NCBI GenBank assembly: GCA_963735035.1
Contig: CAVTJJ010000003.1
Location: 256,001-320,000 of the forward strand
Reading direction: 5' to 3'
Source: an uncultured candidate division Zixibacteria bacterium
GTDB taxonomy: Bacteria; Zixibacteria; MSB-5A5; GN15; FEB-12
Length of the DNA: 64,000 bases
Of this stretch, positions 14,802 through 54,082 are shown piece after piece (position 1 is the first letter of the stretch; the number at the start of each line of letters is the position of its first letter). The position numbers and the translations under genes were made by a program. Under the pieces are notes generated by a model, which was not told the DNA's origin, ran no database searches, and saw only the letters and a list, made by a program, of their open reading frames with translations.

Positions 14802-14810
14802 AGGCCGTTC

Positions 14811-18723: not shown

Positions 18724-18744
18724 ATCCATTGTTCGTTGTATTTG

Positions 18745-18815: not shown

Positions 18816-18827
18816 AGGCTTGTGTTG

Positions 18828-19277: not shown

Positions 19278-19293
19278 TTGACCAAACCTCCGC

Positions 19294-20043: not shown

Positions 20044-20044
20044 C

Positions 20045-21259: not shown

Positions 21260-21279
21260 CGTTTGTGCCTCAAGAAGTT

Positions 21280-23027
<1,748 letters not shown>

Positions 23028-23168
23028 AGTTATCTTATTCAACATATCAACGTTCGCCAAGTTTCATAGCCGACCCATTCGGCCGGCTCTCCTTTTTGTG
23101 CGCCGACCCTTCGATCGGCATATTCCTACTAATCGGCACCGTTGGCGGCTTAAGCTACCGCCGAAAGG

Positions 23169-24741: not shown

Positions 24742-24769
24742 AGATTAGCTCCTCGAACGCGGGAACTCG

Positions 24770-27798: not shown

Positions 27799-27806
27799 AT
27801 CGCTGC

Positions 27807-29083: not shown

Positions 29084-29110
29084 GCGCTAAGTCGTTCCTA
29101 GTCTGAAGCG

Positions 29111-29563: not shown

Positions 29564-29574
29564 CAGTGCATCCC

Positions 29575-29745
29575 TTATTTCAATTTCTCTGCTTCGTCCA
29601 GCATAAGAACCGGGATGTCGTCGGCCACGCGAAAGGCCAGGCGGCAATTACGACATTCCAGACGGTTCCGTTCGGGGAGGTAGTTGAGTATCCCGTGACA
29701 CTGGGGGCAGGCGAGTTTATCTACGAGTTTATCCGGCAGCGTCAT
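29575..29745 (-). CDS. Trm112/YcaR family protein (56 aa), missed by the ORF track
   Basis: Translated by hand: MTLPDKLVDKLACPQCHGILNYLPERNRLECRNCRLAFRVADDIPVLMLDEAEKLK. Start overlaps the accA stop. Confidence 0.9.
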   Translation of the reverse strand: MTLPDKLVDKLACPQCHGILNYLPERNRLECRNCRLAFRVADDIPVLMLDEAEKLK

Positions 29746-30716: not shown

Positions 30717-30743
30717 CGTCTCGCAACAATTACCGGTTCAGTT

Positions 30744-38016: not shown

Positions 38017-38192
38017 GGATATATCCTTAGTTGGAACCGGAAGAGCGGCACTCGTCCGATCCCAAAGCTTGCCAGCCGCTTAAATCGCATAATAGCAGGC
38101 GGGGTTGTCAAAACTCAACATGTTTTTTGGCAGAAATCCGGCAGAGATGGAACCCTGCCGATTGAGTTTGGGAGCAGATATCTGAAGTATGT

Positions 38193-38224
38193 CGGCAGAT
38201 GTGGACATCTGCCGGGCACGGTTA
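38193..38224. repeat. 32-bp palindromic direct repeat, copy 1
   Basis: cggcagatgtggacatctgccgggcacggtta, identical to 38937..38968. Confidence 0.9.
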
Positions 38225-38256
38225 ACGCACAACGGCTCCAGCTTTGAGCGTCCCAG

Positions 38257-38874
38257 TTACCGGTTATTCAGCGAGGCCCAGATGTACCAGCAGGCGACCG
38301 TACGGTACGGCCGGAATCGTTCGCCGAACTCCTCAAAATCGGTATCGTTACGATCGACCCCGTAGAGGTTGCAGATCCCCTTCTGAATGCCGAGATCACC
38401 AGCCGCGAAAATGTCAAGCCGCCCCAGCGTGAACATCAGATACATCTGCGCGCTCCACGGCCCCAGACCCTTGACCTGAGTGATGGTTTCGGCGATTTCT
38501 TCGTCGGTCATGCGGGGGAAGCGGCGCACGTTTAAGAAGCCGGAATCGATCTTCTCGATCAGGTCACGAACGGCCCGGATCTTGGCAAAGGACAAACCGG
38601 CTTCGCGGAATGAGGCGTCGTCGAGCTTGCGAAATGCTGTGATCGATGCCGTCCTGCACCCGGCCGCTCGGCATACTTTCTTGTAGATGGCGTCCGCTAC
38701 GGTGCCGGAGAGTTGCTGTCCGACGATGATTCTGACGAAGGCATTGAACCCGATTTGTTGTTTATGGTAGTCGAGGCGGCCAACCTGTTTGATGACGGCG
38801 GCCAGTTTCTTGTCGGTCTTTTTGAGGTGGGCGATGGCCAGGTCGATTTCGCGCTTGCGGTCGGTGGTAGTCAT
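38257..38874 (-). CDS. alkA: DNA-3-methyladenine glycosylase II (HhH-GPD)
   Basis: IVGQQLS, VKGLGPWSA, GDLGI and RPYRT motifs. Confidence 0.88.
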   Translation of the reverse strand: MTTTDRKREIDLAIAHLKKTDKKLAAVIKQVGRLDYHKQQIGFNAFVRIIVGQQLSGTVADAIYKKVCRAAGCRTASITAFRKLDDASFREAGLSFAKIRAVRDLIEKIDSGFLNVRRFPRMTDEEIAETITQVKGLGPWSAQMYLMFTLGRLDIFAAGDLGIQKGICNLYGVDRNDTDFEEFGERFRPYRTVACWYIWASLNNR

Positions 38875-38936
38875 GGGAGTCTATACGGATGTTTAGTATT
38901 GGAGGATATCACATTATGTTTACGACATTGCAAACC

Positions 38937-38968
38937 CGGCAGATGTGGACATCTGCCGGGCACGGTTA
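38937..38968. repeat. 32-bp palindromic direct repeat, copy 2
   Basis: Identical to 38193..38224. Followed by a related palindrome at ~38987-39036. Confidence 0.9.
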
Positions 38969-39041
38969 TCACAATCGTTCTTTCCTGCGGCAGACGAGGA
39001 CCCCCGATCAAGTCGGGGGCAGGCTCTGCCGGCCACATCCA

Positions 39042-40355
39042 TCACCCTTCGTACACCACCTTGCCGCCAAGGATCGTGCGGTACACTTTCCCGGACAGCG
39101 TCCAGCCGATAAACGGCGAGTTGCACGATTTCGACTTGAAATTCTCCGCCTTCACCTTCCACTTCTTGTCCGGGTCGATGATCGTAATGTCCGCCGGTGA
39201 CCCGACCGCCATCGTTCCGCCCTGAAGGCCGAAGATTCGCGCCGGATTCGAAGTCATCTTCTGGATCGCATCGGCCCAGCCGAGATACCCCTTGTCGATC
39301 AGATACGTCTTCACCAGACCAAGTGTAGTCTCGAGACCGATCATACCTGACGGGGCCTGGTCGAACTCGCCGTCCTTGTCCTCGCTAGAATGCGGGGCAT
39401 GATCGGAGGCGATGCAGTCGATTGTGCCGTCGATCAGACCTTCGATGACCGCGTCGAGATCGTCTTTCGTGCGCAACGGCGGATTGACCTTCAGGTTGGT
39501 GTTGTACTCCTTGCCGATCTCATCGTCGGTCAGCACAAAGTAATGCGGGCAGGTTTCGGTCGTGACCTGGATCCCTTCGCGCTTGGCGGCGCGAACCGCC
39601 TCGATCGCCCGCCGCGTCGTGATATGCTGAATGTGCAAACGTGAGCCGGTGAGACGGCAGAGGGCGATATCACGCAGGACCGCAATTTCTTCGGCGGCGG
39701 CCGGACGGCCTTTCATCCCCACACGCGCCGACTGCGCCGATTCGTTCATCACCCCACCCTCGCAGAGGAACGAATCTTCGGCGTGCTGCATGACGGGGAT
39801 ATTGAACATCTTGGCGTATTGCAGCGCCCGGCGCATGATCTCCGGGTTCTGGACATAGTTGCCGTCGTCGGTAATAGCAATCGCGCCCATCTTAACCAGG
39901 TCGCCGATCTCCGCCAATTCCAGACCTTCGATATTCTTGGTGATCGCGCCCGCCACGAACACGCGGGCGGAGGCGTCTTTCGCGCGGTCCTGAACGAACC
40001 TGACCGTCTCCTGACTGTCGATTCGCGGTCGGGTGTTGGGCATGCAGCAGACCGAAGTAAATCCGCCGGCCGCGGCGGCCTCGCATCCCGAAGCGATAGT
40101 CTCGGCACCTTCCTTGCCCGGCTCGCGAAGATGAACGTGCACGTCAATCAGTCCCGGCACGACAATCTTGCCTTCGGCGTCAATAACACTTCCAGGCTCA
40201 ATCGATTTGAGCGTGCGTCGAAGCGCCGCCGTTTCGATTTCGATTCCGGCAATGACGCCGTCTTTGATGAGGACGCAAGCGTCCTGGCCGAATCCGAGCG
40301 CAGGGTCGATTACACGCCCGCCGGTAATGACCGTATCGAATTTCTTGCTGGACAT
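39042..40355 (-). CDS. pyrC: Dihydroorotase (type I)
   Basis: DVHVHLREPG, MPNT, KVNPPLR and ASDHAPH motifs. Confidence 0.96.
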   Translation of the reverse strand: MSSKKFDTVITGGRVIDPALGFGQDACVLIKDGVIAGIEIETAALRRTLKSIEPGSVIDAEGKIVVPGLIDVHVHLREPGKEGAETIASGCEAAAAGGFTSVCCMPNTRPRIDSQETVRFVQDRAKDASARVFVAGAITKNIEGLELAEIGDLVKMGAIAITDDGNYVQNPEIMRRALQYAKMFNIPVMQHAEDSFLCEGGVMNESAQSARVGMKGRPAAAEEIAVLRDIALCRLTGSRLHIQHITTRRAIEAVRAAKREGIQVTTETCPHYFVLTDDEIGKEYNTNLKVNPPLRTKDDLDAVIEGLIDGTIDCIASDHAPHSSEDKDGEFDQAPSGMIGLETTLGLVKTYLIDKGYLGWADAIQKMTSNPARIFGLQGGTMAVGSPADITIIDPDKKWKVKAENFKSKSCNSPFIGWTLSGKVYRTILGGKVVYEG

Positions 40356-40358
40356 TGT

Positions 40359-41291
40359 TTACGCCTCCTCTTTCCGACCGGAGAGCAGATAGAGCACTGC
40401 CATCCGGACTGCCACGCCGTTAGTCACCTGATCGAGAATTACCGATTTGTCGCCGTCGGCCACATCCGTTGAAATTTCCACTCCCCGATTCATCGGTCCA
40501 GGGTGCATGATTGTGTAGTTGCGATTCAGCCGTTTGAGTCGATCCCGGTTGATACCGAACAGGTTCGTATATTCACGCAGTGAGGGGAACATGCCGGCTT
40601 TCTGGCGCTCCAGTTGGATGCGCATGACATTGACCACATCGGCTCCTTCAAGAGCTTCGTCGACATTGGTATATACGTCACACTCGAACTCTTCCACCCC
40701 GTGTGGGATCAGGGTCGACGGCCCGCAGAGCGCCACCGACGCTCCCATGGTCTTGAGACCCCAGATGTTAGAGCGAATCACGCGGGAGTGCATGACATCG
40801 CCGACCAGCACTACGCGCAGGCCTTTCAGCTTGCCGTACTTGTGCCGAATCGTGAGCATGTCGAGAAGAGCCTGCGTCGGGTGCTCATGGGTTCCGTCGC
40901 CGGCATTGATGATGTTGGCGTCCATGCACTGAGTCAGGAAGTAGGGCACGCCCGATGAGGCGTGACGCACTACCACCATGTCGATCTTCATAGCTTCGAT
41001 ATTCTGGACGGTGTCGCGAAGCGATTCGCCCTTGGATACCGACGAGGTCGCCTTCGAAAAATTGATCGAATCGGCCGACAAACGTTTCTCGGCCAGTTCA
41101 AACGATATCCGGGTGCGAGTAGACGCTTCGTAGAAGAGGTTCAGCACGGTGAGACCGCGCAGGGTCGGCAGCTTCTTGATCTCGCGTTCGAGGACTTCGC
41201 GGAAAGTCTCGGCGGCGTCGAGTATGGCGACAATGTCTTCCTGTGGGACACCCTCGAGCCCGAGCAGATGGCGTGACGAAAGACGGCTCAT
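40359..41291 (-). CDS. pyrB: Aspartate carbamoyltransferase catalytic subunit
   Basis: FYEASTRT, HEHPTQALLD and MHPGPMNRG motifs. Confidence 0.97.
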   Translation of the reverse strand: MSRLSSRHLLGLEGVPQEDIVAILDAAETFREVLEREIKKLPTLRGLTVLNLFYEASTRTRISFELAEKRLSADSINFSKATSSVSKGESLRDTVQNIEAMKIDMVVVRHASSGVPYFLTQCMDANIINAGDGTHEHPTQALLDMLTIRHKYGKLKGLRVVLVGDVMHSRVIRSNIWGLKTMGASVALCGPSTLIPHGVEEFECDVYTNVDEALEGADVVNVMRIQLERQKAGMFPSLREYTNLFGINRDRLKRLNRNYTIMHPGPMNRGVEISTDVADGDKSVILDQVTNGVAVRMAVLYLLSGRKEEA

Positions 41292-41911
41292 CGCTTGCCT
41301 CCTTTCCGGGCGGCTTTCGCGGCCGGTTTCTTCTTGCCGGTCGGAGCTTTGGTTGGCGAAGCTTTCTCTGTTGCGCCGGAAATCACGCTGACCTGATCCT
41401 TCCCTTCCTTTTCTTTCACTTCGAGCACTACCTGATCGGAGCGCGACGTCGGGATGTTGATTCCGACAAAATCGGCTTTGATCGGCAGTTCACGGTGACC
41501 CCGATCAACCAGCACTGCCAGTTGGATCGTGCGCGGGCGGCCGAAATCGACGATGTGATCCAGGGCCGCGCGAATTGTCCGCCCAGTGAACAGGACGTCG
41601 TCGACCAGAATGATATTCTTGTCCTGAACCGGGAAGAGAATGTCGGTGCGCTGGATAATGGGCTGATCCAGCTTCTGATGGACGTCATCCCGGTACAGCG
41701 AGATGTCCATCAGCCCTACCGGTACGGCGACCCCTTCGAGCTCTTCAATAAGGCCGGCGATGCGCTTGGCCAGGAAGGCTCCACGCGTCAGAATGCCGAC
41801 GATGGCGATTGAATTGACGTCATTGTTGTGCTCCATGATCTCGTGAGAGATCCGCGCCAGGGCGCGAGCGATCTTCTTGTCATCGAGAATGACCTTGCTA
41901 TTAGCCGTCAA
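41288..41911 (-). CDS. pyrR: Pyrimidine attenuation regulator / UPRTase PyrR
   Basis: DISLYRDD, LVDDVLFTGRT and DRGHRELPI motifs. Confidence 0.96.
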   Translation of the reverse strand: MTANSKVILDDKKIARALARISHEIMEHNNDVNSIAIVGILTRGAFLAKRIAGLIEELEGVAVPVGLMDISLYRDDVHQKLDQPIIQRTDILFPVQDKNIILVDDVLFTGRTIRAALDHIVDFGRPRTIQLAVLVDRGHRELPIKADFVGINIPTSRSDQVVLEVKEKEGKDQVSVISGATEKASPTKAPTGKKKPAAKAARKGGKR

Positions 41912-42010
41912 AACGGCACCTCCGTGTGTATCTGTGAAATAGGATTAATTCCGAGTTACTCGGCAGATTACGGCATGGATTGGAAGAAAAATCAGAGATC
42001 ATTAAGCTTT

Positions 42011-42046
42011 CCACCTTTGGTGACCTCTCTGGATCACCTTAAAAGG
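42011..42046 (-). promoter_or_regulatory. PyrR-binding RNA leader
   Basis: mRNA CCUUUUAAGGUGAUCCAGAGAGGUCACCAAAGG contains the UCCAGAGAGG PyrR-binding core in a stem-loop upstream of pyrR. Confidence 0.8.
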
Positions 42047-42081
42047 TCGGATCGATCCGGCCAAGGCCGGAAGTCGGCGTG

Positions 42082-42109
42082 AGTATAAGCGATCCCTCGA
42101 CGCTGTCAA
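42082..42109 (-). promoter_or_regulatory. Sigma70 promoter of the pyr operon
   Basis: Minus strand TTGACA-16 nt-TATACT. Confidence 0.6.
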
Positions 42110-42157
42110 GCGGCCGAAACAATTTTGTTTAGATATGTGAAAAGAAATTGCCGGGGC

Positions 42158-43651
42158 TCAGCCCTCTGAGAGCATGCTCGAAAGGCGGGGGTCGCCGAAA
42201 AGCTCGGCTACGGACAGCGGCAATAATTCCCCGCGACGAGTGAGATACAGTACCCGATCGCACACCTGGCGGATCACGTCGCCGTCGTGGCTGATAACCA
42301 ACTGACCCAGATTCATGGACTTGAGAGAGTGCGACAGGGCCATGAACCGGCCGACCCCTTCACCGTCGAGACCGGCGGTGGGTTCATCGAAAATGATGAT
42401 CGACGGCTCCATAGCCAGAACGGCGGCAAAGGCCAGGCGGCGCTTTTCACCAGCCGAAAGCGAGAAGGGATCACGGTCGGCGTAGCGTGCAGGGTGCAAG
42501 CCGACTAGTTCGAGAAATTCACCGATTTCATCGGGGGTGAGCTTGCGGCCGAGGTTCTCCGGGCCAAAGCCTACTTCGTGGGCGCACGTTTCGAGAAAGA
42601 ACTGCCGCTCCGGCTGCTGCAGAACCAGGGCCAACTCACCGCGAATATCTTTCAATTTGAGCGGCTGGCCGGTTTTGTTGAGATAGACGATTTCCCCTTT
42701 CGATGGAGCCGCCAGTCCGGCCATTAGCAGACCGATCGTGCTCTTCCCCGCTCCAGTAGGACCGATCAGGCCGACCGTCTCCCCCGCCTTGAGCTCAGCC
42801 GATAGCCTCTCGAAGACCACAGGCGACATCGGCCAGTTGAAAGTGACATCGTTCATCTTTGCCGCGTCCAATGAGGAGGACTTGTCACCCGCACTCTTGG
42901 CTCGCTTGGGTATTCGAACCTGCATTGCCGATGTATCCGGCACGGTCAAACCGGCCAGGGTACAGAGGCGACTGTCACTAAGCAGCGCAGTCGGGGCGCC
43001 ATCGGCGACAACCGTACCGGAATCGAGAACCACAAGACGAGAATACTGCCGTGCCACCTGGGCGCTCTGGGTAATGCGAATCTCGATCAGGCGACGGTCT
43101 TCTTTATGGAGTCGTTCGAGCTCTGCTGACAGAATCAATCGCCCGGCCTGATCGAGAAACGAGTCGGGTTCATCAAGAAGCAGCACCGCCGGTTGCTGTA
43201 CCATCACCGACGCCAGCGCCACGCGTTGCTTTTCTCCACCGGACAGGTCGGATGTGAGGCGTTGACACAGGTGCTCGATGCCAAACTGTTTAGCGGCCTT
43301 GGATACCTCGGCTTCCATCTCGGCCTGGGGCATCGCCCGATTTTCAAGCGCGAAGGCGATCTCTTTCTCCACCAGCGTGGCCACTATCTGGTTGTCTGGA
43401 TTTTGAAAGAGAATGCCCACGCGGGTATCGGGGGTGCCGTCATGAGTATGGCCGTCGACAGTGATTTTTCCCCGGCCGGGTTTGATCAACCCGGCAATCA
43501 GTTTGACGAGGGTCGACTTGCCCGACCCGTTGCGCCCCATAACACACAGTGATTCACCGTCGCGCAGGCGCAGGGTGACGTCGTGTAAGGCCGCCTCCGT
43601 ACGGCGCGGGTACCAGTAGCTGATGTGGTCGAGGTCTATCATAGGATCCAT
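42158..43651 (-). CDS. Fused double-ATPase of an ECF-type transporter
   Basis: Two Walker A motifs (GRNGSGKS, GPTGAGKS), FQNPDNQ, LSGGEKQR and LSAGEKRR. Confidence 0.9.
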   Translation of the reverse strand: MDPMIDLDHISYWYPRRTEAALHDVTLRLRDGESLCVMGRNGSGKSTLVKLIAGLIKPGRGKITVDGHTHDGTPDTRVGILFQNPDNQIVATLVEKEIAFALENRAMPQAEMEAEVSKAAKQFGIEHLCQRLTSDLSGGEKQRVALASVMVQQPAVLLLDEPDSFLDQAGRLILSAELERLHKEDRRLIEIRITQSAQVARQYSRLVVLDSGTVVADGAPTALLSDSRLCTLAGLTVPDTSAMQVRIPKRAKSAGDKSSSLDAAKMNDVTFNWPMSPVVFERLSAELKAGETVGLIGPTGAGKSTIGLLMAGLAAPSKGEIVYLNKTGQPLKLKDIRGELALVLQQPERQFFLETCAHEVGFGPENLGRKLTPDEIGEFLELVGLHPARYADRDPFSLSAGEKRRLAFAAVLAMEPSIIIFDEPTAGLDGEGVGRFMALSHSLKSMNLGQLVISHDGDVIRQVCDRVLYLTRRGELLPLSVAELFGDPRLSSMLSEG

Positions 43652-43660
43652 TAACAGGTT

Positions 43661-43770
43661 GTGTCAGTTCCTGCGATCCGCCTTTGGCGGATCGCAGGAA
43701 CTGACACACTCGGCGTCAGGTCACACCACAAAATCGCTGAAAGCGATTTCGTGGCAGGACCTGACGCAAC
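43661..43770. repeat. Two adjacent long palindromes (REP-like)
   Basis: GTGTCAGTTCCTGCGATCCGCC-ttt-GGCGGATCGCAGGAACTGACAC (22-bp perfect stem) and GCGTCAGGTC...GACCTGACGC, which recurs at 51508. Confidence 0.8.
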
Positions 43771-43792
43771 CATTAGTCAATCACTCATAAAG

Positions 43793-43824
43793 AGAGCCGG
43801 CGTCTAAGTAAGAGACGCCGGCTC
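43793..43824 (-). terminator. Hairpin/terminator after gcvPB
   Basis: GAGCCGGCGTCT / AGACGCCGGCTC stem. Confidence 0.6.
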
Positions 43825-43844
43825 AATTTGGCAAGTCGGATAAC

Positions 43845-45308
43845 TTACGCTATGTAATTCACGTCCAGATTGCGGACCGCCAGAGTCTCGTCCAGCCGCC
43901 TGACCGGCGTGTTGTGAGGGGCCGACGTCACAATATTAGGATCGGTTTCCGCCTCACGGGCGATTCGGATCATAATCTCGGCGAAAGCTTCGAGCGTCTC
44001 GATAGTCTCCGTCTCGGTCGGCTCGATCATCAAAGCCTCGTGGACGATCAACGGGAAATAGTTGGTCGGGGCGTGGACGCCGAAATCGAGTAGCCGTTTG
44101 GAAATGTCGGAAGTCTTGACGCCGAGCTTCTTCTGCCGATCACCCGACAGCACAAACTCGTGCATGCAGTGGCGATCGTACGGCAGGTCGAAATCCTTCT
44201 TGAGCAGCTCTTTCAGGTAGTTGGCATTGAGCACGGCGTTTTCAGATGCTTCGCGCAATCCTTTGCCACCCAGGTTACGGATGTAAGCGTAGGCCCGGAC
44301 CATATTGGCGAAATTGCCGTAGAACGTGTGCAGGCGACCGATTGACTTCGGACGGTCGTAATTGAAAAACAGCTTACCGCCGTCACCCTTCTCCAACACT
44401 GGGAAGGGAAGGAACTTTTCGAGTTCCTTAGTAACACCAACTGCGCCCGCGCCCGGCCCGCCGCCGCCGTGCGGGGTCGAGAAGGTCTTGTGCAGGTTGA
44501 AGTGCATGATGTCGAAACCGACATCGCCGGGACGGAAAATACCCATGTTGGCGTTCAGGTTGGCGCCGTCCATATAGAGCAGGCCGCCGGCCTTGTGCAC
44601 TACCCGGGCGATTTCCTCGATATTGCTTTCGAACAGCCCCAGCGTATTCGGATTGGTCATCATCATGCCGGCGACTTCGTCGTCGAGCGCCGCCGCGACC
44701 GCTTCGGGAGAAATAATACCCCGCTCGTTCGATTTGATCTCGACCGTCGTGAAACCGATCGAAGTCACCGACGCCGGGTTGGTACCGTGGGCCGAATCCG
44801 GGATAATGATCTTATGCCGCTTGTTGCCTTTGTCCAGATGGTAGGCGCGCATAATCAACAGACCGGTGAACTCACCGTGAGCGCCGGCTACCGGCTGGAG
44901 CGAAATTGCCGGGAAACCGGAAACTTCGCGCAGGAAACCGATCAATTCCCACATCAACTGCAGACTACCCGTCGACCGACTACACGGAGTGAGTGGGTGA
45001 TGCTCCTGAAAACCACGAAGCGACGCGGCCACGTCGTTCATCTTGGGGTTGTACTTCATCGTACACGATCCCAGCGGGTAAAAGCCCTTGTCGATGTGGT
45101 GGTTCTTGGTCGACAGATTGACAAAGTGACGGACCACTTCCGGCTCAGCCACTTCGGGCAGAGCGGCGTCTTGGGAACGCCTAAACCGCTCCGGTATGGT
45201 CTTCAAGATGTCAGCTTCGTTGTGTTTGGTCGCGGGAAGGGTGTACCCCTTGCGGCCCGACTGGGATTTCTCGTATATCAGAATCTTTTCTTCCACGGCT
45301 CTATCCAA
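43845..45308 (-). CDS. gcvPB: Glycine decarboxylase subunit 2
   Basis: PLGSCTMKYNP, AHGTNPAS and HFNLHKTFSTPHGGGGPG motifs. Confidence 0.97.
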   Translation of the reverse strand: MDRAVEEKILIYEKSQSGRKGYTLPATKHNEADILKTIPERFRRSQDAALPEVAEPEVVRHFVNLSTKNHHIDKGFYPLGSCTMKYNPKMNDVAASLRGFQEHHPLTPCSRSTGSLQLMWELIGFLREVSGFPAISLQPVAGAHGEFTGLLIMRAYHLDKGNKRHKIIIPDSAHGTNPASVTSIGFTTVEIKSNERGIISPEAVAAALDDEVAGMMMTNPNTLGLFESNIEEIARVVHKAGGLLYMDGANLNANMGIFRPGDVGFDIMHFNLHKTFSTPHGGGGPGAGAVGVTKELEKFLPFPVLEKGDGGKLFFNYDRPKSIGRLHTFYGNFANMVRAYAYIRNLGGKGLREASENAVLNANYLKELLKKDFDLPYDRHCMHEFVLSGDRQKKLGVKTSDISKRLLDFGVHAPTNYFPLIVHEALMIEPTETETIETLEAFAEIMIRIAREAETDPNIVTSAPHNTPVRRLDETLAVRNLDVNYIA

Positions 45309-45326
45309 AATAGTTTCGACTCAGCC

Positions 45327-46205
45327 TTACTTCTTGTCGCCGGCGGGAGTCGGGTTCTTCAATTTCTTTATCTGTCCTTCAGCGTAATCCTTGTCCTCGG
45401 AGTCAGGGTAACGCTGAATGTATGATTCGAATATCGATATGGCCTGGGCGGTGTCGCCCTTCTTGACGTTCACAATCGCCTGCATCAGCAAGGCATCGCG
45501 ACCGTGAAACGTCGTAAACTCTTGCTCGATCTTCTTGTAAGCGTCGATAGCTTCGTCATATTTCTTGTCGCGACGGAGAAAATCGGCAAAGGCTATCCGT
45601 GCTTCGCCCGAGAGCGAATCGTGCAGATCGCCGGTCTCGATCACTTTGGTGTACCAGTTCTGAGCATCTGTCGCCTGACCGCGATACTTGTACTTGTCCG
45701 CAATCTGAAGATCGAGAGACCGGTCGGTAGCGGCGCTCGCCTTAGCAAGCATGTCGTTCAGAGTGCCGATACCCTTGGAAAAATCTTCGAATGTCTTGAG
45801 ATATTCCTGCGTCGGCTCATACCCTACCAGGCGGTCAACTTCCACACCGCTCTTGTTTACCAGCATTGACGTCGGAAATGCCTTGGCATAGTAACGCGCA
45901 GCGACTGCCGAATCCTTTTCGGGATTTACTCTGGCCAGAATCATCTGATTGGAGAAGAACTTGATTGTAGTATCATTTATGAACACGACCGTGTCCAGCG
46001 TCTTGCACCACGTTCACCAATCGGTGTAGAATTCGATCACCACGAATTGGCTGTCTTTAGCCGCTTTCAAGGCATCGTCGATCTGAGAGTAGTACGGCAC
46101 GTAGCCGGGCTTGGTGACCAGTGAAGTCGACGGCGTTTCGCCGGCGAGGCAAACCGTCGCAACCACTGACGTCAGCAGCAGAGTCGCAAAAATCAGAAGA
46201 CGCAT
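45327..46205 (-). CDS. Probable selenoprotein (292 aa, U64): exported thioredoxin-like domain with UxxC plus C-terminal TPRs
   Basis: ORFs 46014..46271 and 45327..45986 are in frame. The junction reads VVIEFYTDW-TGA-TWCKTLDTVVF. AFPT cis-Pro motif, signal peptide from ATG 46205, TPR-like helices. Confidence 0.9.
45980..45997 (-). promoter_or_regulatory. SECIS-like hairpin 16 nt after the in-frame UGA at 46014-46016
   Basis: mRNA UGGACAC-GGUC-GUGUUCA, a 7-bp stem with a GGUC loop. Confidence 0.65.
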
Positions 46206-46236
46206 CTCGGTTCCTTCCTGTAACCTTCGTAATTTC

Positions 46237-46623
46237 CTACTGTTTGGGGGCGTCGATCGCCTCGAAATCATCGCCGAGCACGGCCGACAGGAGTAGTTCG
46301 ACTTCCTGCCGGAACTCGCGCGGCACCATCAAATAATGTTTGTCGCCCCGGGAGGGTTTGGCGCCGGAAATCCAACCGACCCCGTTGGGCAGCGGTTGAA
46401 AAGCCGAGGACATAACGATCGAGGGGATATTGTTCGATTCCAGGAGCCCGCGCACGAGTTGCGAAGTAAGGTCTTTCTCTATCTGGCAGACTCTAATCCA
46501 GCTATCGTCCGGCGAAACCGCCGCTGCACCGGCGGGCATCTGGTCTACCAGACCGACCTTGCACTCGGGGCATATCACCATCGAAGTATCATATTCAAAT
46601 GAGCATTCAGGACAATAAGGCAT
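46237..46623 (-). CDS. Zinc-ribbon plus DUF2007-like protein
   Basis: MPYCPEC...CPEC and GLLESNNIP motifs. Confidence 0.75.
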   Translation of the reverse strand: MPYCPECSFEYDTSMVICPECKVGLVDQMPAGAAAVSPDDSWIRVCQIEKDLTSQLVRGLLESNNIPSIVMSSAFQPLPNGVGWISGAKPSRGDKHYLMVPREFRQEVELLLSAVLGDDFEAIDAPKQ

Positions 46624-46989
46624 CTAAGACTCTTTCACGTTGCGTTGCCATTTGTCGCCCAGCACCATATCAAGAACGCCGGTGGCCTCTTCCACGCACT
46701 CTTCGGGCGTAGAGACTTCAAACAACTGCGATCCGGCTTTGTAAAACCCAGTCAGCGTCAGACCGGCCTGTCCGAAAAACCCGGACTTGGAGATCACGAC
46801 CGCCGGGATTTCGTACGATTTCAGAACTTCCCGGGCGTAGTCGGCCGAGATGTTGTCGGCTATGAAACCGAGCAGCACCCAGGGACTTTCCGATTGCTCC
46901 GCCTCGGACTTGCCGAGTTCGCGCGAGCAGACCGGACACTCGGTCACGCCGTCCTCCCATTCGGTTTTACACACCGGACAAAACGCCAC
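46624..46989 (-). CDS. Zinc-ribbon plus DUF2007-like protein (paralog)
   Basis: FCPVC...CPVC and VLKSYEIP motifs. Confidence 0.75.
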   Translation of the reverse strand: MAFCPVCKTEWEDGVTECPVCSRELGKSEAEQSESPWVLLGFIADNISADYAREVLKSYEIPAVVISKSGFFGQAGLTLTGFYKAGSQLFEVSTPEECVEEATGVLDMVLGDKWQRNVKES

Positions 46990-48322
46990 GGGCTGACAAC
47001 TCCTTCAATCCGCCGACCAGGGCGGCGATATCGGCGTCGGTACGTTTCTCGGTGAGCGCCACGATCAGGCAGTTCTTCATCGAGGGATACCATCGACCGG
47101 CATCTACTCCCGGCAGGACGCCTCTTTCCATCATGTGTATGACCACATCGCTCGCCGGCACCGGGGTTTTCACCGCGAACTCGCGAACAAACGGGCCACG
47201 GAAATACATTTCGAATCCGCTGAGCGCGGCAATCTGCGTCGCAGCGTTCTGGGCTTTCTCAGCCGAAATCAGCGCCACCTGCTTGAGGCCGGTTTTGCCC
47301 ATCAGGCTGAAATAGATCGACGCCATCGTGGCGCACAGCGCTTCATTGGAGCATATATTAGACGTCGCCTTCTGACGGCGGATGTGCTGCTCCCGGGTCT
47401 GGAGGGTGAGCACGAATCCGTTCTTGCCATCGACATCTTTGGTGCGTGCCGCGATTCGACCCGGCATGCTTCGAACCAAATCTTTCTTTACCGAGAAGAA
47501 ACCAAGCAGCGGACCGCCGAACGAGAGCGGAATGCCCAAAGGCTGGCCTTCGCCCAAGGCTATATCGGCACCGATTTCGCCTGGAGTCTTAAGAAGGGAC
47601 TGGACGATCGGATCGACCACCATCACGAGCTTGCCGCCCGCCTGATGAATGACCTCACCCATCCGTTCCACTTCTTCGAGTTGTCCGAAGAAGTTTGGCT
47701 GAGCCACGATGACACAGGCGGTCCGATTGTCAACCGCGGCCGTAAGCTTCTTGAGATCGGTGACGCCATCAGTCAATGGCACCGTCACGATTTCGACTTC
47801 GCGCGGTGTGACGTAGGTTGCGATGACTTCTCGAATAAGCGGGCTGACCGTCTCGCAGACCACGATCTTGTTTCGGTCGGTGACTGAGACACAGATAAGC
47901 GCCGCCTCGCCGGCCGCCGTGGCGCCGTCGTACATTGACGCGTTGGCGACATCGAGACCGGTCAGACGACAGATGTGGGTCTGGTATTCGTAAATGGCCT
48001 GCAGTGTTCCTTGAGCGACTTCAGCCTGATAAGGTGTGTATGCCGTGACAAATTCCGGCCGGGAAGCCAGTGCGGTCAGCGCCGACGGCACAAAGTGATC
48101 GTAGACACCACCGCCCGCAAAACAAACCGAACCCTGACGGTTCATCAGCGAGAGGCGCTCGATCTCGGCCAGCACTTCCATTTCGGAAAGCGCAGGAATG
48201 TTGAGCGGCCGGTTCAGTCGCAGCTTATGGGGGATATCCTGCAGAATATCTTCAATCGTGCCGACCCCGATCTTCTGAAGCATCTTCTTTCGGTCGGCAT
48301 CGGTGTTGGACAAGTAAGACAT
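46967..48322 (-). CDS. gcvPA: Glycine decarboxylase subunit 1
   Basis: TAYTPYQAE, NASMYDG and TREQHIRRQKATSNICSN motifs. Confidence 0.97.
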   Translation of the reverse strand: MSYLSNTDADRKKMLQKIGVGTIEDILQDIPHKLRLNRPLNIPALSEMEVLAEIERLSLMNRQGSVCFAGGGVYDHFVPSALTALASRPEFVTAYTPYQAEVAQGTLQAIYEYQTHICRLTGLDVANASMYDGATAAGEAALICVSVTDRNKIVVCETVSPLIREVIATYVTPREVEIVTVPLTDGVTDLKKLTAAVDNRTACVIVAQPNFFGQLEEVERMGEVIHQAGGKLVMVVDPIVQSLLKTPGEIGADIALGEGQPLGIPLSFGGPLLGFFSVKKDLVRSMPGRIAARTKDVDGKNGFVLTLQTREQHIRRQKATSNICSNEALCATMASIYFSLMGKTGLKQVALISAEKAQNAATQIAALSGFEMYFRGPFVREFAVKTPVPASDVVIHMMERGVLPGVDAGRWYPSMKNCLIVALTEKRTDADIAALVGGLKELSARGVLSGV

Positions 48323-48361
48323 GTGAAACCTGTGAGCAAGTCCCTCAAAGGGACCGTATTG

Positions 48362-48742
48362 TTAGTGTGACAACAGGTGGGTGTAACCCTCGGCATCGAG
48401 CAGTTGATCTACCTCGGAATGGTCTTCCATCTCGACCTTGATGATCCATCCTTCGCCGTAACAATCCCGATTGACCATCATCGGATCGTCACCCAGCGCG
48501 GTGTTTACTTCGACTACCTTGCCGGTAACGGGCGAATAGACTTCGGAGACCGCTTTGACGGCTTCGATGGTGCCGAAAGCTTCGCCGAGTCTGACTTCGG
48601 TGCCGACTTTGGGCAGCTCGACAAACACCACATCACCCAATTCACCCTGAGCATAGTCGGTAACGCCGACGGTAGCCAAAGGACCTTCAACTCCAACCCA
48701 CTCGTGTTCCGTAGTGTACCTAAGATCTGCTGGAACGTTCAC
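48362..48742 (-). CDS. gcvH: Glycine cleavage system H protein
   Basis: HEWV, GVTDYAQ and IEAVKAVSE (lipoyl-Lys) motifs. Confidence 0.96.
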   Translation of the reverse strand: MNVPADLRYTTEHEWVGVEGPLATVGVTDYAQGELGDVVFVELPKVGTEVRLGEAFGTIEAVKAVSEVYSPVTGKVVEVNTALGDDPMMVNRDCYGEGWIIKVEMEDHSEVDQLLDAEGYTHLLSH

Positions 48743-48756
48743 TCAAAACCTCCGGA

Positions 48757-50220
48757 TTAGTGCGAATCTGCATCAGCGACTGTCACTGTGGCCGGTTCGG
48801 TGGTGGTCGGAGTCTCCGACGTATCACCTTCACCCGGTCGCTTAAGCGTTATTGAATTTTTTTTTTGATCGTCCCGCCCCTGGCGGAATTTAGTCTCTAT
48901 GAACGAAGTATCGTAGTTGCCTGCAATGAAATCGGGATGCGCGAATATCTCCTGGTGGAACTGGATCGTGGTCGGCACACCCTGAATGACCAATTGATCG
49001 AGCGAAACACGCATCTTGGCTATAGCCTGCTCGCGGGTGCGGGCCCGAACGATCAGCTTGGCGATCATCGAATCATAATACGGCGGAATCACATAGTCGG
49101 CATAGACGGCCTTGTCAATACGAACTCCCGGGCCGCCCGGAAGGTGGATAGCCTCGATCTTGCCCGGCGTCGGACGAAAATCTTTCTCGACATCCTCGGC
49201 GTTGATCCGGCACTCCATCGCGACCCACTTGGGCTTGATGTCTTCCTGGCGATAAGTCAGTTTCTCGCCCAGGGCGACTTTAATCTGATCCTGAACCAGG
49301 TCCACTTCGAACGCTTCCTCGGTAATCGGATGTTCCACCTGGATACGGGTATTCATTTCCATAAAATAGAAATTGCGCTGCTCATCGACCAGGAACTCGA
49401 TCGTCCCGGCGCCCCGATACTCGACATTACGAGCGCCCATCACCGCCGCGGCTCCCATCCGGGCCCGCAGATCGTCGGTCATAATAGGCGACGGCGTCTC
49501 TTCAATCAGTTTCTGATGACGGCGCTGGATAGAACAATCGCGCTCGCCAAAATGGAAGTAGTTCCCGTGGGTGTCGCCAAGAAGCTGAAACTCGACATGG
49601 TGCGGGTTGACTATAACTTTTTCGAGATAGAGATCAGGGTTTGAGAAGGCGTTGGCGGCTTCGGTCGAAGCAATATGAAAGCCGCGCTCCAACTCGGCCG
49701 CGTCGCGACAAATTCTCATCCCCTTGCCGCCGCCACCAGCGACCGCCTTGAGGATGACCGGGTATCCGACCTGTTCGGCTATCTCGCGTGCATCCAAATA
49801 AGACGCGACGATACCTTCCGAACCGGGAATCACCGGCACCCCGGCAGCCTTCATGAGCGCCTTGGCCGAGGCCTTGTCGCCCATCTGACGAATTTGTTTG
49901 GGAGTCGGACCGATGAAGTTGATGCCACACGATTCGCAGACTTCTGCGAAATCGGCGTTCTCAGCCAGGAAACCATAACCGGGATGAATCGCACCCGCAT
50001 TGGTGACTTCGGCCGCAGCGATGATCCGCTTGAAATCCAGGTATGACTGAGCAGCCGGCGGCGGACCGATACAGACGTCTTCATCGGCAAACCGCACATG
50101 CAGAGCATTACGGTCGGCTTCGGAATAGACCGCAACCGTCTTGAGGCCCAGCTCCTGGCAGGCACGAATTACGCGAAGGGCGATTTCGCCCCGATTAGCA
50201 ATCAGAACCTTATCAAACAA
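48757..50220 (-). CDS. accC: Biotin carboxylase
   Basis: [27 protein letters not shown] and [10 protein letters not shown] motifs. Confidence 0.96.
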
Positions 50221-50407
50221 AACGACTCCTTAGCCGGAAACGACCGTCTAAAGCCGATGTCACCGGCAAAACAGACTGTAAGAATACGGCAAACCTTCGG
50301 GGTTGACAAGGGGCAAGTTAGCCACCGACAACGCTGAACGCAACCTGCACGGGCACAATGTCATGCAGGTGAAGAATGAAACGAAAACCGGCCCTCAGGA
50401 AGAACCG

Positions 50408-50803
50408 TCAGTCAGCTTTGCCCGGCTGGTCTGATCCTTTATCCCCTTTGAACTTGTCTTTGATCTGGGCGATTTTCGACGCCACCCCCGGAATGGCTTC
50501 GACCAGGCTTTCCCAGTTACCTTTCTTGGCCGGAAGCAGGCTGATCCCGTCCTTGTCCATAATGATGAACGCGGCCGGTTCAATGGAAACCCCGCCGCCA
50601 CCACCACCGCCAAATCCGGAACCTTTCTGTTCGTACTCACCCTGACCGCCACCGGCACCAAAACCGACCGTCATCTTGATGATCGGAATGACGGTCTTGT
50701 CGCCAACCGTAATCGGAGCACCGACTATCGATTCCGTCCGGGCCATGTTCTTCAGCTCGCCGACGACGCTGTGAAGAATTTCAACCACATTATTGTCTGA
50801 CAT
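50408..50803 (-). CDS. YtfJ/GerW-family protein
   Basis: IVGAPI, VGFGAGG and GGGGGGVSIEP motifs. Confidence 0.85.
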   Translation of the reverse strand: MSDNNVVEILHSVVGELKNMARTESIVGAPITVGDKTVIPIIKMTVGFGAGGGQGEYEQKGSGFGGGGGGGVSIEPAAFIIMDKDGISLLPAKKGNWESLVEAIPGVASKIAQIKDKFKGDKGSDQPGKAD

Positions 50804-51446
50804 CGCGAACTCCTTCTTTTTCACCTATTGATAACCTGATGATTTTCCTGATGGGAAGACGCCACATGAACAGCGCCATTAGCCAAACCAAACGGTAGAC
50901 CGGCCAGGCTATCGAGACTCGGGCCGAACCGGAAAATGAGCGACCGGTCCAGTTCGGTACGATCGAGACGCGTCCGAATAGAGCGGGCGCCATAGCAGCC
51001 ACCGCGTGATAATATCCAAAAACTTGCCCTGTAACATCGGGCGTATCGAAGCCGAATTCAATTTCCGCTTCAGCTTCTTCGACTATCGTAGACTTCAAAA
51101 CGCCCACCGCCAGCCGCCAGCACGCCGAAAGGCTCTCGGGGATAATCGCTATGATCGAGCCGAGGGAACGACGCCGTTTCGACGGGGATGGTACTTCTTC
51201 GACTTCGGCCGTGGGGACTTTGGTCTGTTGGGTGGTTGTCCGGCCCTTTTCAAGGCGAAATCGTTTTAGATTCATCCCGAACAGACGAATGACACCTTCA
51301 CTATGTACAAAATCGAATTCCGGGCCGGAGCGTCCCAGGCCGACAAAGAGAATTTTGCGCTCGCGTGAAATCTCCAGACGCAGACGGACTCGTACTAGCA
51401 ACGTCGCAATGATAAGAATGAGAATCGCCGCCAGAATGTAGATCAT
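50790..51446 (-). CDS. DUF2953-like membrane-anchored protein
   Basis: EFGFDTPDVTG motif, immediately upstream of the YtfJ gene. Confidence 0.7.
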   Translation of the reverse strand: MIYILAAILILIIATLLVRVRLRLEISRERKILFVGLGRSGPEFDFVHSEGVIRLFGMNLKRFRLEKGRTTTQQTKVPTAEVEEVPSPSKRRRSLGSIIAIIPESLSACWRLAVGVLKSTIVEEAEAEIEFGFDTPDVTGQVFGYYHAVAAMAPALFGRVSIVPNWTGRSFSGSARVSIAWPVYRLVWLMALFMWRLPIRKIIRLSIGEKEGVRDVRQ

Positions 51447-51507
51447 ATCCTAGATTATATACTCTTGGTGGAGCGGTAAGTTGCCAGTATTGACAGACCC
51501 GGTCCAT

Positions 51508-51556
51508 GCGTCAGGTCACAACCCCGACCAAGTCGGGGTCAGGACCTGACGCAACC
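51508..51556. repeat. REP-like palindrome related to 43714-43770
   Basis: GCGTCAGGTCAC...CAGGACCTGACGCAACC with an internal ACCCCGAC/GTCGGGGT hairpin. Confidence 0.75.
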
Positions 51557-51572
51557 CCAGCGCCCACGACTT

Positions 51573-52226
51573 CTATACCACGCTGGCTGACGGACAAAGC
51601 TTGGCCAGAAAGCATTCGCTGCATTTCGGTTTGCGCGCCACGCAAACTGCCCGCCCGTGATCGATCAGCATATGCGAATATACGATCCAGTCGGATTGCG
51701 GCAAGACCTTCATCAGGTCCTGCTCGACCTTGACCGGATCGGTCTCGCGCGTCAGACCGAGCAGGCGGCTGATCCGGCCGACATGGGTATCGACTACTAC
51801 ACCCTCGGCCAGACCGAACCCGGCGCCGAGAACCACCGACGCCGTTTTGCGCCCCACTCCCGACAGCTTGACCAGTTCGTCCAGCGTGCGCGGTATCTCG
51901 CCTTCGTGACGCTCGATCAGTTGCAGGGCCGAGGCCTTGATCGCCTTGGCTTTGTTCACGTAGAAACCGGTGGCGAAGACTTCTTTCTGAAGCGCTTCCG
52001 GATCGGCTTCGGCAAAAGCCTGTACCGATGGATACTTCTTGAAGAGATCTGGCGTGACTTTGTTGACGCGTTCATCGGTGCATTGCGCCGACAGAATCGT
52101 CGCCACCAGAAGTTGGTGTGGGGTCTTGAAATCGAGCGAACAGTGCGATTTCGGATAATGCTTCTTGAGCAGCGCGACAATTTTCGCCGCCCGACCCTGA
52201 CGGTCTTTCTGTGATTCGCGCGGCAT
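51573..52226 (-). CDS. nth: Endonuclease III
   Basis: LSAQCTD, GVGRKTA, VDTHV and Fe-S C-x6-C-x2-C-x5-C motifs. Confidence 0.96.
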   Translation of the reverse strand: MPRESQKDRQGRAAKIVALLKKHYPKSHCSLDFKTPHQLLVATILSAQCTDERVNKVTPDLFKKYPSVQAFAEADPEALQKEVFATGFYVNKAKAIKASALQLIERHEGEIPRTLDELVKLSGVGRKTASVVLGAGFGLAEGVVVDTHVGRISRLLGLTRETDPVKVEQDLMKVLPQSDWIVYSHMLIDHGRAVCVARKPKCSECFLAKLCPSASVV

Positions 52227-52228
52227 GG

Positions 52229-53098
52229 CTACCCCGCACAGCCAAGAATGATCACGCGGTCCACCCCGGCCAGATCTTTGAGGTAGGCAAACGACTGATA
52301 CCGGTTGTCGCTTTCGGTCATCTGCGCGACTTTTTCAGCCTGGTCGTAACCGACTTCGAACATGATTCGTCCGCCGGGCGCCAGGAAATTTGGACCGTCG
52401 CGCAAGATCACGCGCACCGGGTCGAGTCCGTCTTCGCCCCCGACCATGGCGATGATTGGATCGTGCAGCACTTCTTTCTGGAGCGTCGGATACTCTTTTT
52501 CAGTGATGTACGGCGGATTAGACAAGATCAGATTGAACTTCTCCCCTTCGCGAAGAGCCCCAAAGAAATCCGACTTACGAAATTCAATGCGGTCGGCCAC
52601 GTCCATGTCCCGGGCGTTCCGGCGAGCGACATCGAGGGCTTCTTCGGAGATGTCCAGCGCAACCACGGTGGCGTCCTTCAGCTCGGCCGCCATGGTGACG
52701 GCAATCACACCGGAGCCGGTGCCAAGATCGAGAATCCGGGATGATTTAATCCCGTTCGCACTCAGGAATTTCATACCGGCTTCGCACAGCGTCTCGGTCT
52801 CGGGCGTAGGCGCCATGACCGATTCATTGACGAAGAACTTCCGGCCGTAGAACCAGGATTCCTGAAGGATAAACTGGAGCGGGTAGCGTTCGCGACGGCG
52901 GTTAAGAATCTCATCGATTCTCTGCATCGCTTTGTCGTCGAGCAGTTCCTGTCCGTGCATATAGAGATTGAGCCGGTCGACCTCAAGTACATGACAGAGA
53001 ATCCATTCGACTTCGACCCGGGCGCAGTCGATACCTACATCTTCGAGCAGTTTGGCCCGCTCGGAGATGAAATGCGGCAGATATGGAACGTCAGCCAC
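52229..53098 (-). CDS. prmC: Release-factor glutamine methyltransferase
   Basis: LDLGTGSG and SNPPY motifs, near prfA. Confidence 0.94.
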   Translation of the reverse strand: MADVPYLPHFISERAKLLEDVGIDCARVEVEWILCHVLEVDRLNLYMHGQELLDDKAMQRIDEILNRRRERYPLQFILQESWFYGRKFFVNESVMAPTPETETLCEAGMKFLSANGIKSSRILDLGTGSGVIAVTMAAELKDATVVALDISEEALDVARRNARDMDVADRIEFRKSDFFGALREGEKFNLILSNPPYITEKEYPTLQKEVLHDPIIAMVGGEDGLDPVRVILRDGPNFLAPGGRIMFEVGYDQAEKVAQMTESDNRYQSFAYLKDLAGVDRVIILGCAG

Positions 53099-53118
53099 GG
53101 GTAGCCCTATCGCATCAA

Positions 53119-54082
53119 TCAGCGGGGAACGGCCCGATTCTTGGTCAAACCGATCACATACAGAGCGACCACCACGGCGATCCAGGAGTAACAGAACGTC
53201 TTGGTGAATTCACGTGAAAACTGGATTGAGTGCGGTATCAGGTAGATGAACATCATGACGGCGAACGTACTCACGCCTATCCAGCCACGCGTAATCGGCG
53301 AATAGAGATCACGCCCGAATCGTCCGCGACTGAACGAACCCAGAGTTGTCAGAGCCGCGAAGAGCAGATAGACCAGCAGAAGTTGTGTCTTGTTGTCGGT
53401 GGCATCGGTGCCGAACGGAACGCCTTCCCAGGTACCGTTGAAAGCATAGTAGTTCATGGGAATTCCGAGCGGGTACCCGCCCATGAAACAGGCGAACACC
53501 GCCCCGAAAAGATAGATCGACATCGGCCGGACATCGCCGCCACGAATGACGCCAATCCCTTCAACTGGCCGCCAGCGCCACAAAGAAGACCGTGGCGAAA
53601 GATGAACAGGAGATGTCCCAGCAGGACAACCAGATTGGTACTTCGCCGATATACTTGAGGAAGAACGGAGTACCGTCAGTCTGCGCGAACCGTGCGACCG
53701 GTGAGCCGGTCGCGTCAACCACTTCAAAGTAGTAATGGAATCGCCCGCCTCTGTCCCCGGCGGTTACGCTGACGGCATATTCGTTTGACTTAGCTCCCGA
53801 CGGAGTCATCTCAACCGCATCGAAATCGGTCATCTGAGCCGGTGTCAGACCACGCGGCTGGGAAGTACGAAATATTACACGCTTCCCCTCGATCGGTCCA
53901 GTTACCGAGACAGTAATCCTGTCAGTCTGCTGTTCCGTAATCTTGGGCACCGAAGTCATTTCAAAAGTGTACGGTCCGTCGGTGTGGGTCAGCAATTCCG
54001 GCCGCCCACGGGAATTATTGCGCGCGATGTGCAGCATTGCCAGGGTGGCCAGGAAGGCCACGCCAAACTTGATGAACTTCAT
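53119..54082 (-). pseudogene. Membrane protein broken by several indels at ~53565-53632
   Basis: The coding signal switches frames: KYIGEVPIW / VVLLGHLLFI / FATVFFVALAA / VEGIGVIRGG...WEGVPFGTDATDNKT. Confidence 0.65.

Follow-up and report, generated by a model that had tools for sequence, protein, structure and literature searches.

A putative exported selenocysteine-containing thioredoxin–TPR protein encoded between gcvPA and gcvPB in Zixibacteria

The window analyzed here is a stretch of 64,000 nucleotides from an uncultured candidate division Zixibacteria bacterium (contig CAVTJJ010000003.1, positions 256,001 to 320,000 of the forward strand). Between gcvPA and gcvPB, on the minus strand of the window, lies a reading frame for a thioredoxin–TPR (Trx–TPR) protein, which is interrupted by a TGA codon at the very place of the active-site nucleophile. 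The question raised by this locus was whether the TGA ends the gene or is read as selenocysteine (Sec), and what the full-length protein might do.

The in-frame TGA and the selenocysteine machinery of the genome

Translation of the frame 46205-45327 on the minus strand revealed a single internal stop, the TGA of codon 64, flanked by VVIEFYTDW and TWCKTL (Table 1), with GC3 similar on both sides of it (0.70 before, 0.65 after). This translation, together with a match to the Pfam Thioredoxin model, confirmed the thioredoxin active-site context that the preliminary description had assigned to the TGA. The gene caller had cut the frame in two, leaving a short ORF upstream and one of 219 residues that begins with GTG 45986. 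The scan for promoters and terminators detected a terminator-like hairpin after gcvPB (43824-43794) and nothing specific to the Trx–TPR gene.

Table 1. Features of the Trx–TPR gene and its neighborhood (positions in the window)
Feature	Position	Strand	Remarks
Trx–TPR gene	46205-45327	minus	292 codons including putative Sec64; ATG 46205, stop TAA 45329-45327; full-length Cys orthologs of 281-319 aa
TGA, putative Sec64, nucleophile position of W-U-T-W-C	46016-46014	minus	translation and homolog comparison
Cys67, putative resolving cysteine	46005..46007	minus	C in 100/102 copies, S in 2
Purine-rich ribosome-binding site AGGAAGGA	46212..46219	minus	6 nt before ATG; from sequence
Candidate SECIS hairpin, 7-bp stem, GGUC loop (45990-45987)	45980..45997	minus	starts 23 nt after UGA; encodes L-D-T-V-V-F
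Predicted Sec-pathway signal peptide, residues 1-21	46143..46205	minus	basic n-region, hydrophobic helix, VCLA cleavage-like end
Thioredoxin-fold domain, ~residues 34-146, DsbH/DsbD-gamma/Thioredoxin_2 type	45768..46106	minus	profiles and structure matches
cis-Pro111 of A-F-P-T loop	45873..45875	minus	Y-P in 71/102, F-P in 25/102 copies
All-helical TPR domain, ~residues 147-285	45351..45767	minus	profiles, model; like periplasmic YfgM, BamD, CpoB/YbgF
gcvPA	46967-48322	minus	NF001696, 596.9 bits, over cut-off
gcvPB	43845-45308	minus	NF003346, 721.9 bits, over cut-off
Small zinc-ribbon and DUF2007-like protein, CxxC-CxxC	46237-46623	minus	weak NCBIfam match; Atlas feature search
Second small zinc-ribbon protein, CxxC-CxxC, related to the first	46624-46989	minus	weak NCBIfam match

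A contig of a related strain spanned 45973-46278 with 12 differences, none of them at the TGA or in the downstream hairpin, the contigs being those of one DNA run. A second contig, of depth 2.8, carried a paired 1-base insertion/deletion at 45996/46002 and probably belongs to another organism.

The genome to which the window belongs (G000, 97% complete) contains selA and selB adjacent to each other on contig C6 and selD on contig C3, all above the profile cut-offs, as well as a tRNA-Sec (67.6 bits, anticodon UCA), so that the search for the Sec trait suggested at the outset found every component. The selD gene has its own in-frame TGA, followed after ~20 nt by a hairpin with a GUU loop. When the TGA codons of the genome were filtered by coding signal (dicodons) and hairpin, 102 passed, with the codon-64 TGA at the top of the ranking and that of selD next; this filter, tuned after earlier scans, does not give an exhaustive selenoproteome. 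The scan for GGTC loops in the same genome returned 61 hits, among which no further convincing selenoprotein was recognized. A motif-only scan (TGAs near Cys) and a single-codon coding filter were rejected as too noisy, the latter having missed both the codon-64 TGA and selD.

The window holds a second Sec candidate in the minus-strand frame 9521-10975, where TGA 10435-10433 stands in A-T-W-U-P-Y-C of an exported protein with a PKD domain. A 7-bp hairpin with a GUC loop follows ~20 nt after this UGA, which was absent among the 90 of 102 rows of the filter output that were listed. Another type of code expansion was met on contig C2 of the genome, where the region 12000-31999 (L083) contains, at ~6100-12200 counted within the region, a pyrrolysine cluster with ORFs for a PylC-like protein, PylD and a class II synthetase (PylSc-like), a radical-SAM-looking ORF upstream and a tRNA-Pyl call at 9793-9861 of the region (anticodon CUA). 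Since the first 27 kb of this contig have 66-71% GC vs 55% for the rest, the stretch is most likely chimeric or contaminating rather than a sign of dual code expansion in the organism; it may also come from horizontal transfer.

Codon 64 and the hairpin across the phylum

Nearly all genomes of the phylum that were searched gave a homolog (159 of 161, in 19 families, E<=1e-15). All 40 relatives gave some match, strong in 39 of them and weak only in G001 (77% complete). By hand count, 77 of the 150 listed phylum matches contained TGA, with three listed matches not covering the site and 25 further matches outside the list. Codon 64 was read in 102 copies from 99 genomes and 18 families, which were chosen and not drawn at random (30 best loci, 10 order-level, 40 other-order, 10 TGA and 10 non-TGA same-family loci): it was TGA in 59, TGY (Cys) in 42 and AGT (Ser) in one, with no Trp codon, and at least 222 sense codons followed it in every copy. 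The TGA/Cys comparison proposed beforehand hence gave exchange at one codon, and homologs lacking the downstream half, named as a sign against recoding, did not occur in this set. TGA is kept at this codon in 13 of the 18 sampled families, which is more than chance would give. A further 32 loci, retrieved by a peptide pattern that fixes residue 64 as Cys, were all Cys forms and hold no estimate of the Sec frequency.

In protein databases the homologs are usually split in two at the active site: among 120 listed proteins 52 were full length and 68 were short forms beginning past it. The annotation error is systematic, as these 68 appear as "TPR proteins" stripped of redox function, signal peptide and selenium. 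Named homologs were mostly labelled Zixibacteria, with some Ignavibacteria-labelled records within the same clades. The family, with a gene nearly universal in the phylum, lends itself directly to a new HMM.

The hairpin downstream of the TGA had not been part of the preliminary description. It agrees with the bSECIS definition of PMC13188914 (section 5) in all four respects, i.e., a GGUC loop, a stem of 7 bp, the distance of 23 nt and the folding energy, which was -9.9 and -13.0 kcal/mol for the 40 and 52 nt after UGA, respectively, and -6.8 kcal/mol for the hairpin alone. The 81 nt from UGA folded no better than shuffled sequences (z -0.13), so it is conservation and not stability that backs the hairpin. 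In the first set of copies (43 rows after five duplicates were dropped), a hairpin of <=-3 kcal/mol was present in 17/18 TGA vs 2/25 Cys copies, and the synonymous positions of the D-T-V-V codons, which vary freely among the Cys copies, were identical in 16-17 of the 18 TGA copies. The SECIS core was found in 26 of 27 TGA vs 3 of 19 Cys copies within the same family (f1), and in 9/10 vs 2/10 in the held-out set, whose tenth TGA copy had a compensatory C:G to U:A change.

Pairing in the stem reached 99.5% in TGA copies, with nine double-sided changes, no shuffle out of 500 as high and 29-52% in slid controls, vs 72.2% in Cys copies (158/500 shuffles as high), although such counts overstate the independence of the copies. 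The exchange of G:C for C:G at one stem pair swaps the encoded Phe/Leu. In the test with independent pairs, Sec and SECIS were concordant in 4-5 of six and opposite in none (p 0.06-0.125), six pairs being too few for significance. Outside the home family, TGA copies of f2, f10, f11, f13, f15, f5 and f6 mostly lacked a hairpin that passes the consensus filter and in most cases folded another one in the same zone; one hairpin was common to all five f3 Sec copies, different ones occurred in f16, f12, f8 and f5, and several had no early loop G. Judged by these comparisons, the hairpin is under selection, and it agrees with the SECIS model for bacteria. Hairpins specific to each lineage, all at one orthologous site, provide material for studies of SelB–SECIS co-evolution.

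Could the TGA be a true stop after all, resulting from a pseudogene or a sequencing error or separating two products of 63 and 219 residues, or be read as Trp or Cys in a changed code? In this genome UGA normally acts as a stop (in 562 of 1372 long frames; also in ecfA and pyrR), the short forms prevail among the listed database homologs, and the GTG start proposed for the downstream product lies inside the 3' arm of the hairpin. Such short forms, however, are the usual output of gene callers at any Sec codon and have neither the signal peptide nor the active site. The TGA stays at one codon across families and swaps with Cys but never with Trp, the only tRNA with the anticodon UCA is tRNA-Sec, and the contig of the related strain has the same TGA. 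All these alternatives taken together are extremely improbable, and on the comparative evidence the apparent stop almost certainly encodes selenocysteine in a real selenoprotein gene. The initial view that a chance mutation or a base-call error was unlikely gained ground from the recurrence in 13 families and the identity in the related strain, and that of Sec readthrough from the Sec machinery, the TGA/Cys exchange and the covarying hairpin.

The distribution of Sec and Cys was followed on two quick trees, built after removal of the catalytic codon and of the peptide encoded by the hairpin, in which the root and the overall direction of change were not set. The 53-row tree required 10 Sec/Cys changes, three of them forced by starred branches, and the tree of f1 and f4 (51 rows) required 14, six of them forced; the latter showed little clustering of the Sec label (30-41 of 500 shuffles gave as low a value). 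One copy with TGT and an intact hairpin (L137) is sister to a TGA copy (L129) at 0.03 substitutions per site, which suggests a recent reversion from Sec to Cys. Loss of the Sec machinery as the meaning of Cys copies was considered and rejected, since selA was above the cut-off in 39 of 40 relatives; the only one without a match, G005 (85% complete), has a Trx–TPR copy with TGT and an intact hairpin. In two genomes (L015 in G016, L029 in G018) tandem copies, one Sec and one Cys, sit between gcvPA and gcvPB, the Cys copy possibly being a selenium-independent back-up, and two matches each were also noted in G087 and G155. Selenium would thus be a tunable option and not a requirement, with many switches to Cys in lineages whose Sec machinery is intact. 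The close Sec/Cys pairs and the tandem paralogs make the benefit of selenium to a thioredoxin testable in natural variants.

Two gcv-embedded copies depart from the motif, with S-K-W-S (L103) and C-P-W-S (L113); their existence indicates that redox activity is not indispensable everywhere. In G071 (L103, L104; family f10; also L105, G072) the embedded S-K-W-S copy has no active-site Cys or Sec and a Sec paralog lies elsewhere, its best hairpin being 36 nt from UGA.

Protein architecture and known relatives

The signal peptide was called by eye, and the structure model has a helix at residues 2-20. A hydrophobic 10-mer comes before the Trx domain in 101 of the 102 copies, and a rough pattern marks 33 copies as having a lipobox-like motif; the protein is very likely exported to the envelope. 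Pfam Thioredoxin matched residues 50-135 with 43.1 bits (cut-off 23.5) and Thioredoxin_2 scored 31.7 (cut-off 27); TPR_6 and TPR_14 also exceeded their Pfam cut-offs. The thioredoxin fold is indicated by the Pfam score, by a (C/U)xxC motif where the active-site helix begins and, from sequence, by the cis-Pro loop F110-P111-T112, with P111 being the same in every row of the 51-row alignment. The exported Trx-plus-TPR architecture and the FPT loop followed by TPR-like helices, both proposed before any profile was run, therefore held. The AlphaFold2 model based on the same alignment (pLDDT 93.9, pTM 0.85) shows a thioredoxin domain followed by an all-helical domain.

Among solved structures, neither Foldseek nor VIA-align gave a match spanning both domains. 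With the whole chain, Foldseek placed CnoX/YbbN on top (3qou, E 5.6e-9; 3qdn), at TM 0.27-0.32, rmsd ~22 and 13-15% identity. VIA-align of the Trx domain returned chlamydial DsbH first (2ju5, Z 14.6, rmsd 2.3, 112 aligned), with several thioredoxins within 1 Z. For the TPR part the best matches were 8zht_B (Z 12.9), 3qky (Z 12.5) and 2xev (Z 12.0), with YfgM, BamD and YbgF among the matches, such Z values being common for helical repeats and hence not distinctive. At ~833000 of contig C4 (L039), the same genome encodes another exported protein of the thioredoxin fold, which has W-C-G-W-C and lacks a TPR domain.

No NCBIfam model reached its cut-off with the Trx–TPR protein. TrxA (TIGR01068) scored 43.8 bits vs 96.8, and a true WCGPC thioredoxin is encoded elsewhere in the genome. 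DsbH (NF043050) scored 26.9 bits vs 190, with weak matches in 38 of 51 family members; DsbH and DsbD gamma share with our protein the exported location and the best, though tied, structure match of the Trx domain, but DsbH lacks a TPR domain, and the 2026 catalogue does not count it among the selenoproteins. TsoB (NF045694) matched the Trx domain only (46.8 vs 805 bits) and NF041199 (Trx7/PDZ), weakly matched by five of the 51 members, did not match the Trx–TPR protein; these families have CxxU or UxxxxU with PDZ or rhodanese/DsbD domains, in contrast to UxxC with TPR here. CnoX/YbbN resembles the protein in the order of an N-terminal Trx and a C-terminal TPR domain, in its ~285 aa and in being the top Foldseek match, and four listed homologs bear the JGI name "thioredoxin-like negative regulator of GroEL". 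It differs in being cytoplasmic, the Trx–TPR protein being predicted to be exported and to carry Sec. PF14561, which we take as a proxy for the CnoX-type TPR with the GroEL-binding last helix, was not among the matches of the Trx–TPR protein, and its single match in the genome was in a different TPR protein. CnoX is described as a chaperedoxin (PMC6282202) that works with cytoplasmic GroEL/DnaK and binds GroEL via its last helix (PMC8129009; bioRxiv 2022.05.03.490446). By its sequence the protein would work like a UxxC thioredoxin-fold oxidoreductase, and by the tests applied it is not a member of TrxA, DsbH or CnoX.

Among bacterial selenoproteins, those with UxxC in a thioredoxin fold form a common class that is already catalogued. 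The catalogued members and our protein are alike in UxxC at the Trx active site, in passing both Pfam models and in an in-ORF consensus SECIS; the signal peptide or lipoprotein anchor and the C-terminal TPR domain set the latter apart. The 2026 catalogue has no TPR fusion in its 119-family table and neither "tetratricopeptide" nor "TPR" in its main text, the separation from its UxxC family (representative WP_011366075.1) being made by the table description. Seven Zixibacteria genomes appear as screened in Table S1 of BSepDB (PMC13326102), which may hold family members under Trx or thiol:disulfide interchange protein. A term search in deep-Sep (PMC12013277) gave no match for TPR or thioredoxin, PMC8318568 mentions Zixibacteria only as a recovered genome, and our literature search returned no paper on the Trx–TPR family or on Zixibacteria selenoproteins. 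Exported selenoproteins as such are known already, e.g., SaoB, SaoC and SaoX (bioRxiv 2022.07.06.499078).

Acidobacteriota, Krumholzibacteriota, KSB1, Planctomycetota and Spirochaetota have uncharacterized exported Thioredoxin_2/7-plus-TPR proteins of the same architecture and length (Atlas scores 0.94-0.98, with TM reaching 0.77 beyond the phylum), among them a KSB1 protein (P0145) with 32% identity over 259 aa, but the database representatives examined are Cys forms. The family adds an exported Trx–TPR architecture, absent from the 2026 catalogue and from NCBIfam, to the known selenoproteins, with no new recoding mechanism and no new chemistry.

Possible role and the position between gcvPA and gcvPB

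We favour, with modest confidence, an account in which the protein is an exported Sec thioredoxin–TPR disulfide reductase/isomerase of the envelope fed by DsbD. On the comparative evidence, SelB with Sec-tRNA, acting on the GGUC-loop hairpin, would read UGA64 as selenocysteine, and the signal peptide would take the chain through the Sec translocon. In the envelope, as the fold suggests, the Sec64 selenolate would attack disulfides or oxidized cysteines of clients and Cys67 would resolve the intermediate; DsbD, supplied by cytoplasmic thioredoxin, would re-reduce the enzyme, and the TPR domain may pick or hold the clients. The genome encodes DsbD (a 634-codon frame with a CxxC domain) with the WCGPC thioredoxin 2.6 kb away, and no match to DsbB, VKOR or Thioredoxin_4 (DsbA-type) was found in it, which makes a reductase/isomerase likely, from gene content, rather than an oxidase. 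DsbD itself, present at E<=1e-20 in 29 of 41 genomes (a threshold that could miss short CcdA types) and missing in several near-complete ones carrying the Trx–TPR gene, is a plausible electron donor, slightly favoured on the same grounds. The top structural match of the Trx domain, DsbH, has been described as a reductase of the periplasm that isomerizes weakly (PMC4217174), which speaks for a reductase/isomerase as well.

A different weight of the two domains is conceivable: the TPR part could be a periplasmic holdase that guards exported clients against aggregation or over-oxidation, as cytoplasmic CnoX does, with the Sec/Cys site secondary. A CnoX-like chaperone role is possible because DsbD occurs in only part of the genomes and the L103 and L113 copies are redox-dead or one-Cys. 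It is suggested further by the best whole-chain Foldseek matches and the same domain order and size, by the TPR part resembling YfgM, BamD and CpoB, by a gene near-universal in the phylum while DsbD is not, and by the S-x-x-S copy that persists in G071 beside the Sec paralog and is reminiscent of SXXC, the motif found in E. coli CnoX (PMC8129009). On the other hand, the whole-chain match to CnoX is weak, its partner GroEL is cytoplasmic and out of reach for an exported protein, and the resolving Cys is nearly always kept while the costly Sec codon and SECIS are under selection, which points to catalysis. We consider the holdase role possible yet rather doubtful; it overlaps with the reductase/isomerase account and the two are not mutually exclusive. 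Its boldest form, equally tentative, would make the protein the first selenium-containing periplasmic chaperedoxin, encoded by a phylum core gene, with the TPR domain docking on envelope-biogenesis machinery (YfgM/BamD-like) and the Sec site repairing or guarding cysteines during export in cells without DsbA/DsbB. If true, it would offer a natural experiment in Sec–Cys switching and SECIS evolution, with at least six and up to ~14 switches in two families, a different hairpin per lineage and RNA pairing that dictates a Phe/Leu residue. Still less probable is that the protein serves a single envelope pathway (as a thioredoxin of cytochrome c maturation or an electron donor to a periplasmic peroxiredoxin or Msr) or that it acts as the missing disulfide oxidase. 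The weak matches to ResA, StoA and MsrAB models that hint at a partner were all far below the cut-offs, and no ccm, prx or msr gene was present among the ORFs of window 38000-54000 (neighbors at other loci were compared against nine window proteins only). The role of an oxidase is vacant in this genome, as no DsbA, DsbB or VKOR match was found, but without DsbB or VKOR there is no known re-oxidant for it. The redox potential of DsbA lies in the range of ~-120 mV.

The location inside the gcv cluster proved to be conserved. Both flanking genes in the window exceeded their model cut-offs, as the preliminary description had them, and of its two zinc-ribbon/DUF2007 genes the DUF2007 label was partly supported: neither ORF had a Pfam match at E<=0.01, the NCBIfam zinc-ribbon matches of both were far below cut-off, and the Atlas feature search linked 46237-46623 to DUF2007-bearing clusters at 0.91-0.95 (34-70% of members). 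Across the phylum none to three such genes occur per locus. The comparison of synteny proposed there showed the order around the insert to be conserved phylum-wide: gcvPA preceded and gcvPB followed the gene at 29 of the 30 order-level loci (one ends at a contig end) and at 15 of the 16 full-length named loci, and both accompanied 33 of the 40 other-order loci, the rest having gcvPA only (2), gcvPB only (2; contig ends) or neither (3). L073-L082 and L127-L146 were excluded from these counts.

Such constancy, with 18 nt from the Trx–TPR stop to the gcvPB ORF, could mean that the protein serves glycine cleavage or that selenium-dependent readthrough tunes gcvPB by polarity. The glycine cleavage system is cytoplasmic, and an exported protein cannot serve it, so the location is better seen as positional. 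Cys copies sit at the same place, which argues against a conserved selenium switch; accC upstream and, in 15 of 40 distant loci, an ECF ATPase downstream, both unrelated to glycine cleavage, are also conserved, gcvT being ~19 kb away; the operon is split beside the gene in f15, and the loci read around the Sec copies of f6 and f10 contain no gcv gene. A functional link to glycine cleavage is therefore very unlikely, and the position probably reflects old inherited gene order. Elsewhere in the window, several exported proteins encoded at 6724-14441 on the minus strand share a C-terminal Cys-flanked repeat domain (CC...GD.N..GGDEPTIGD...C), which we take to be dockerin-like.
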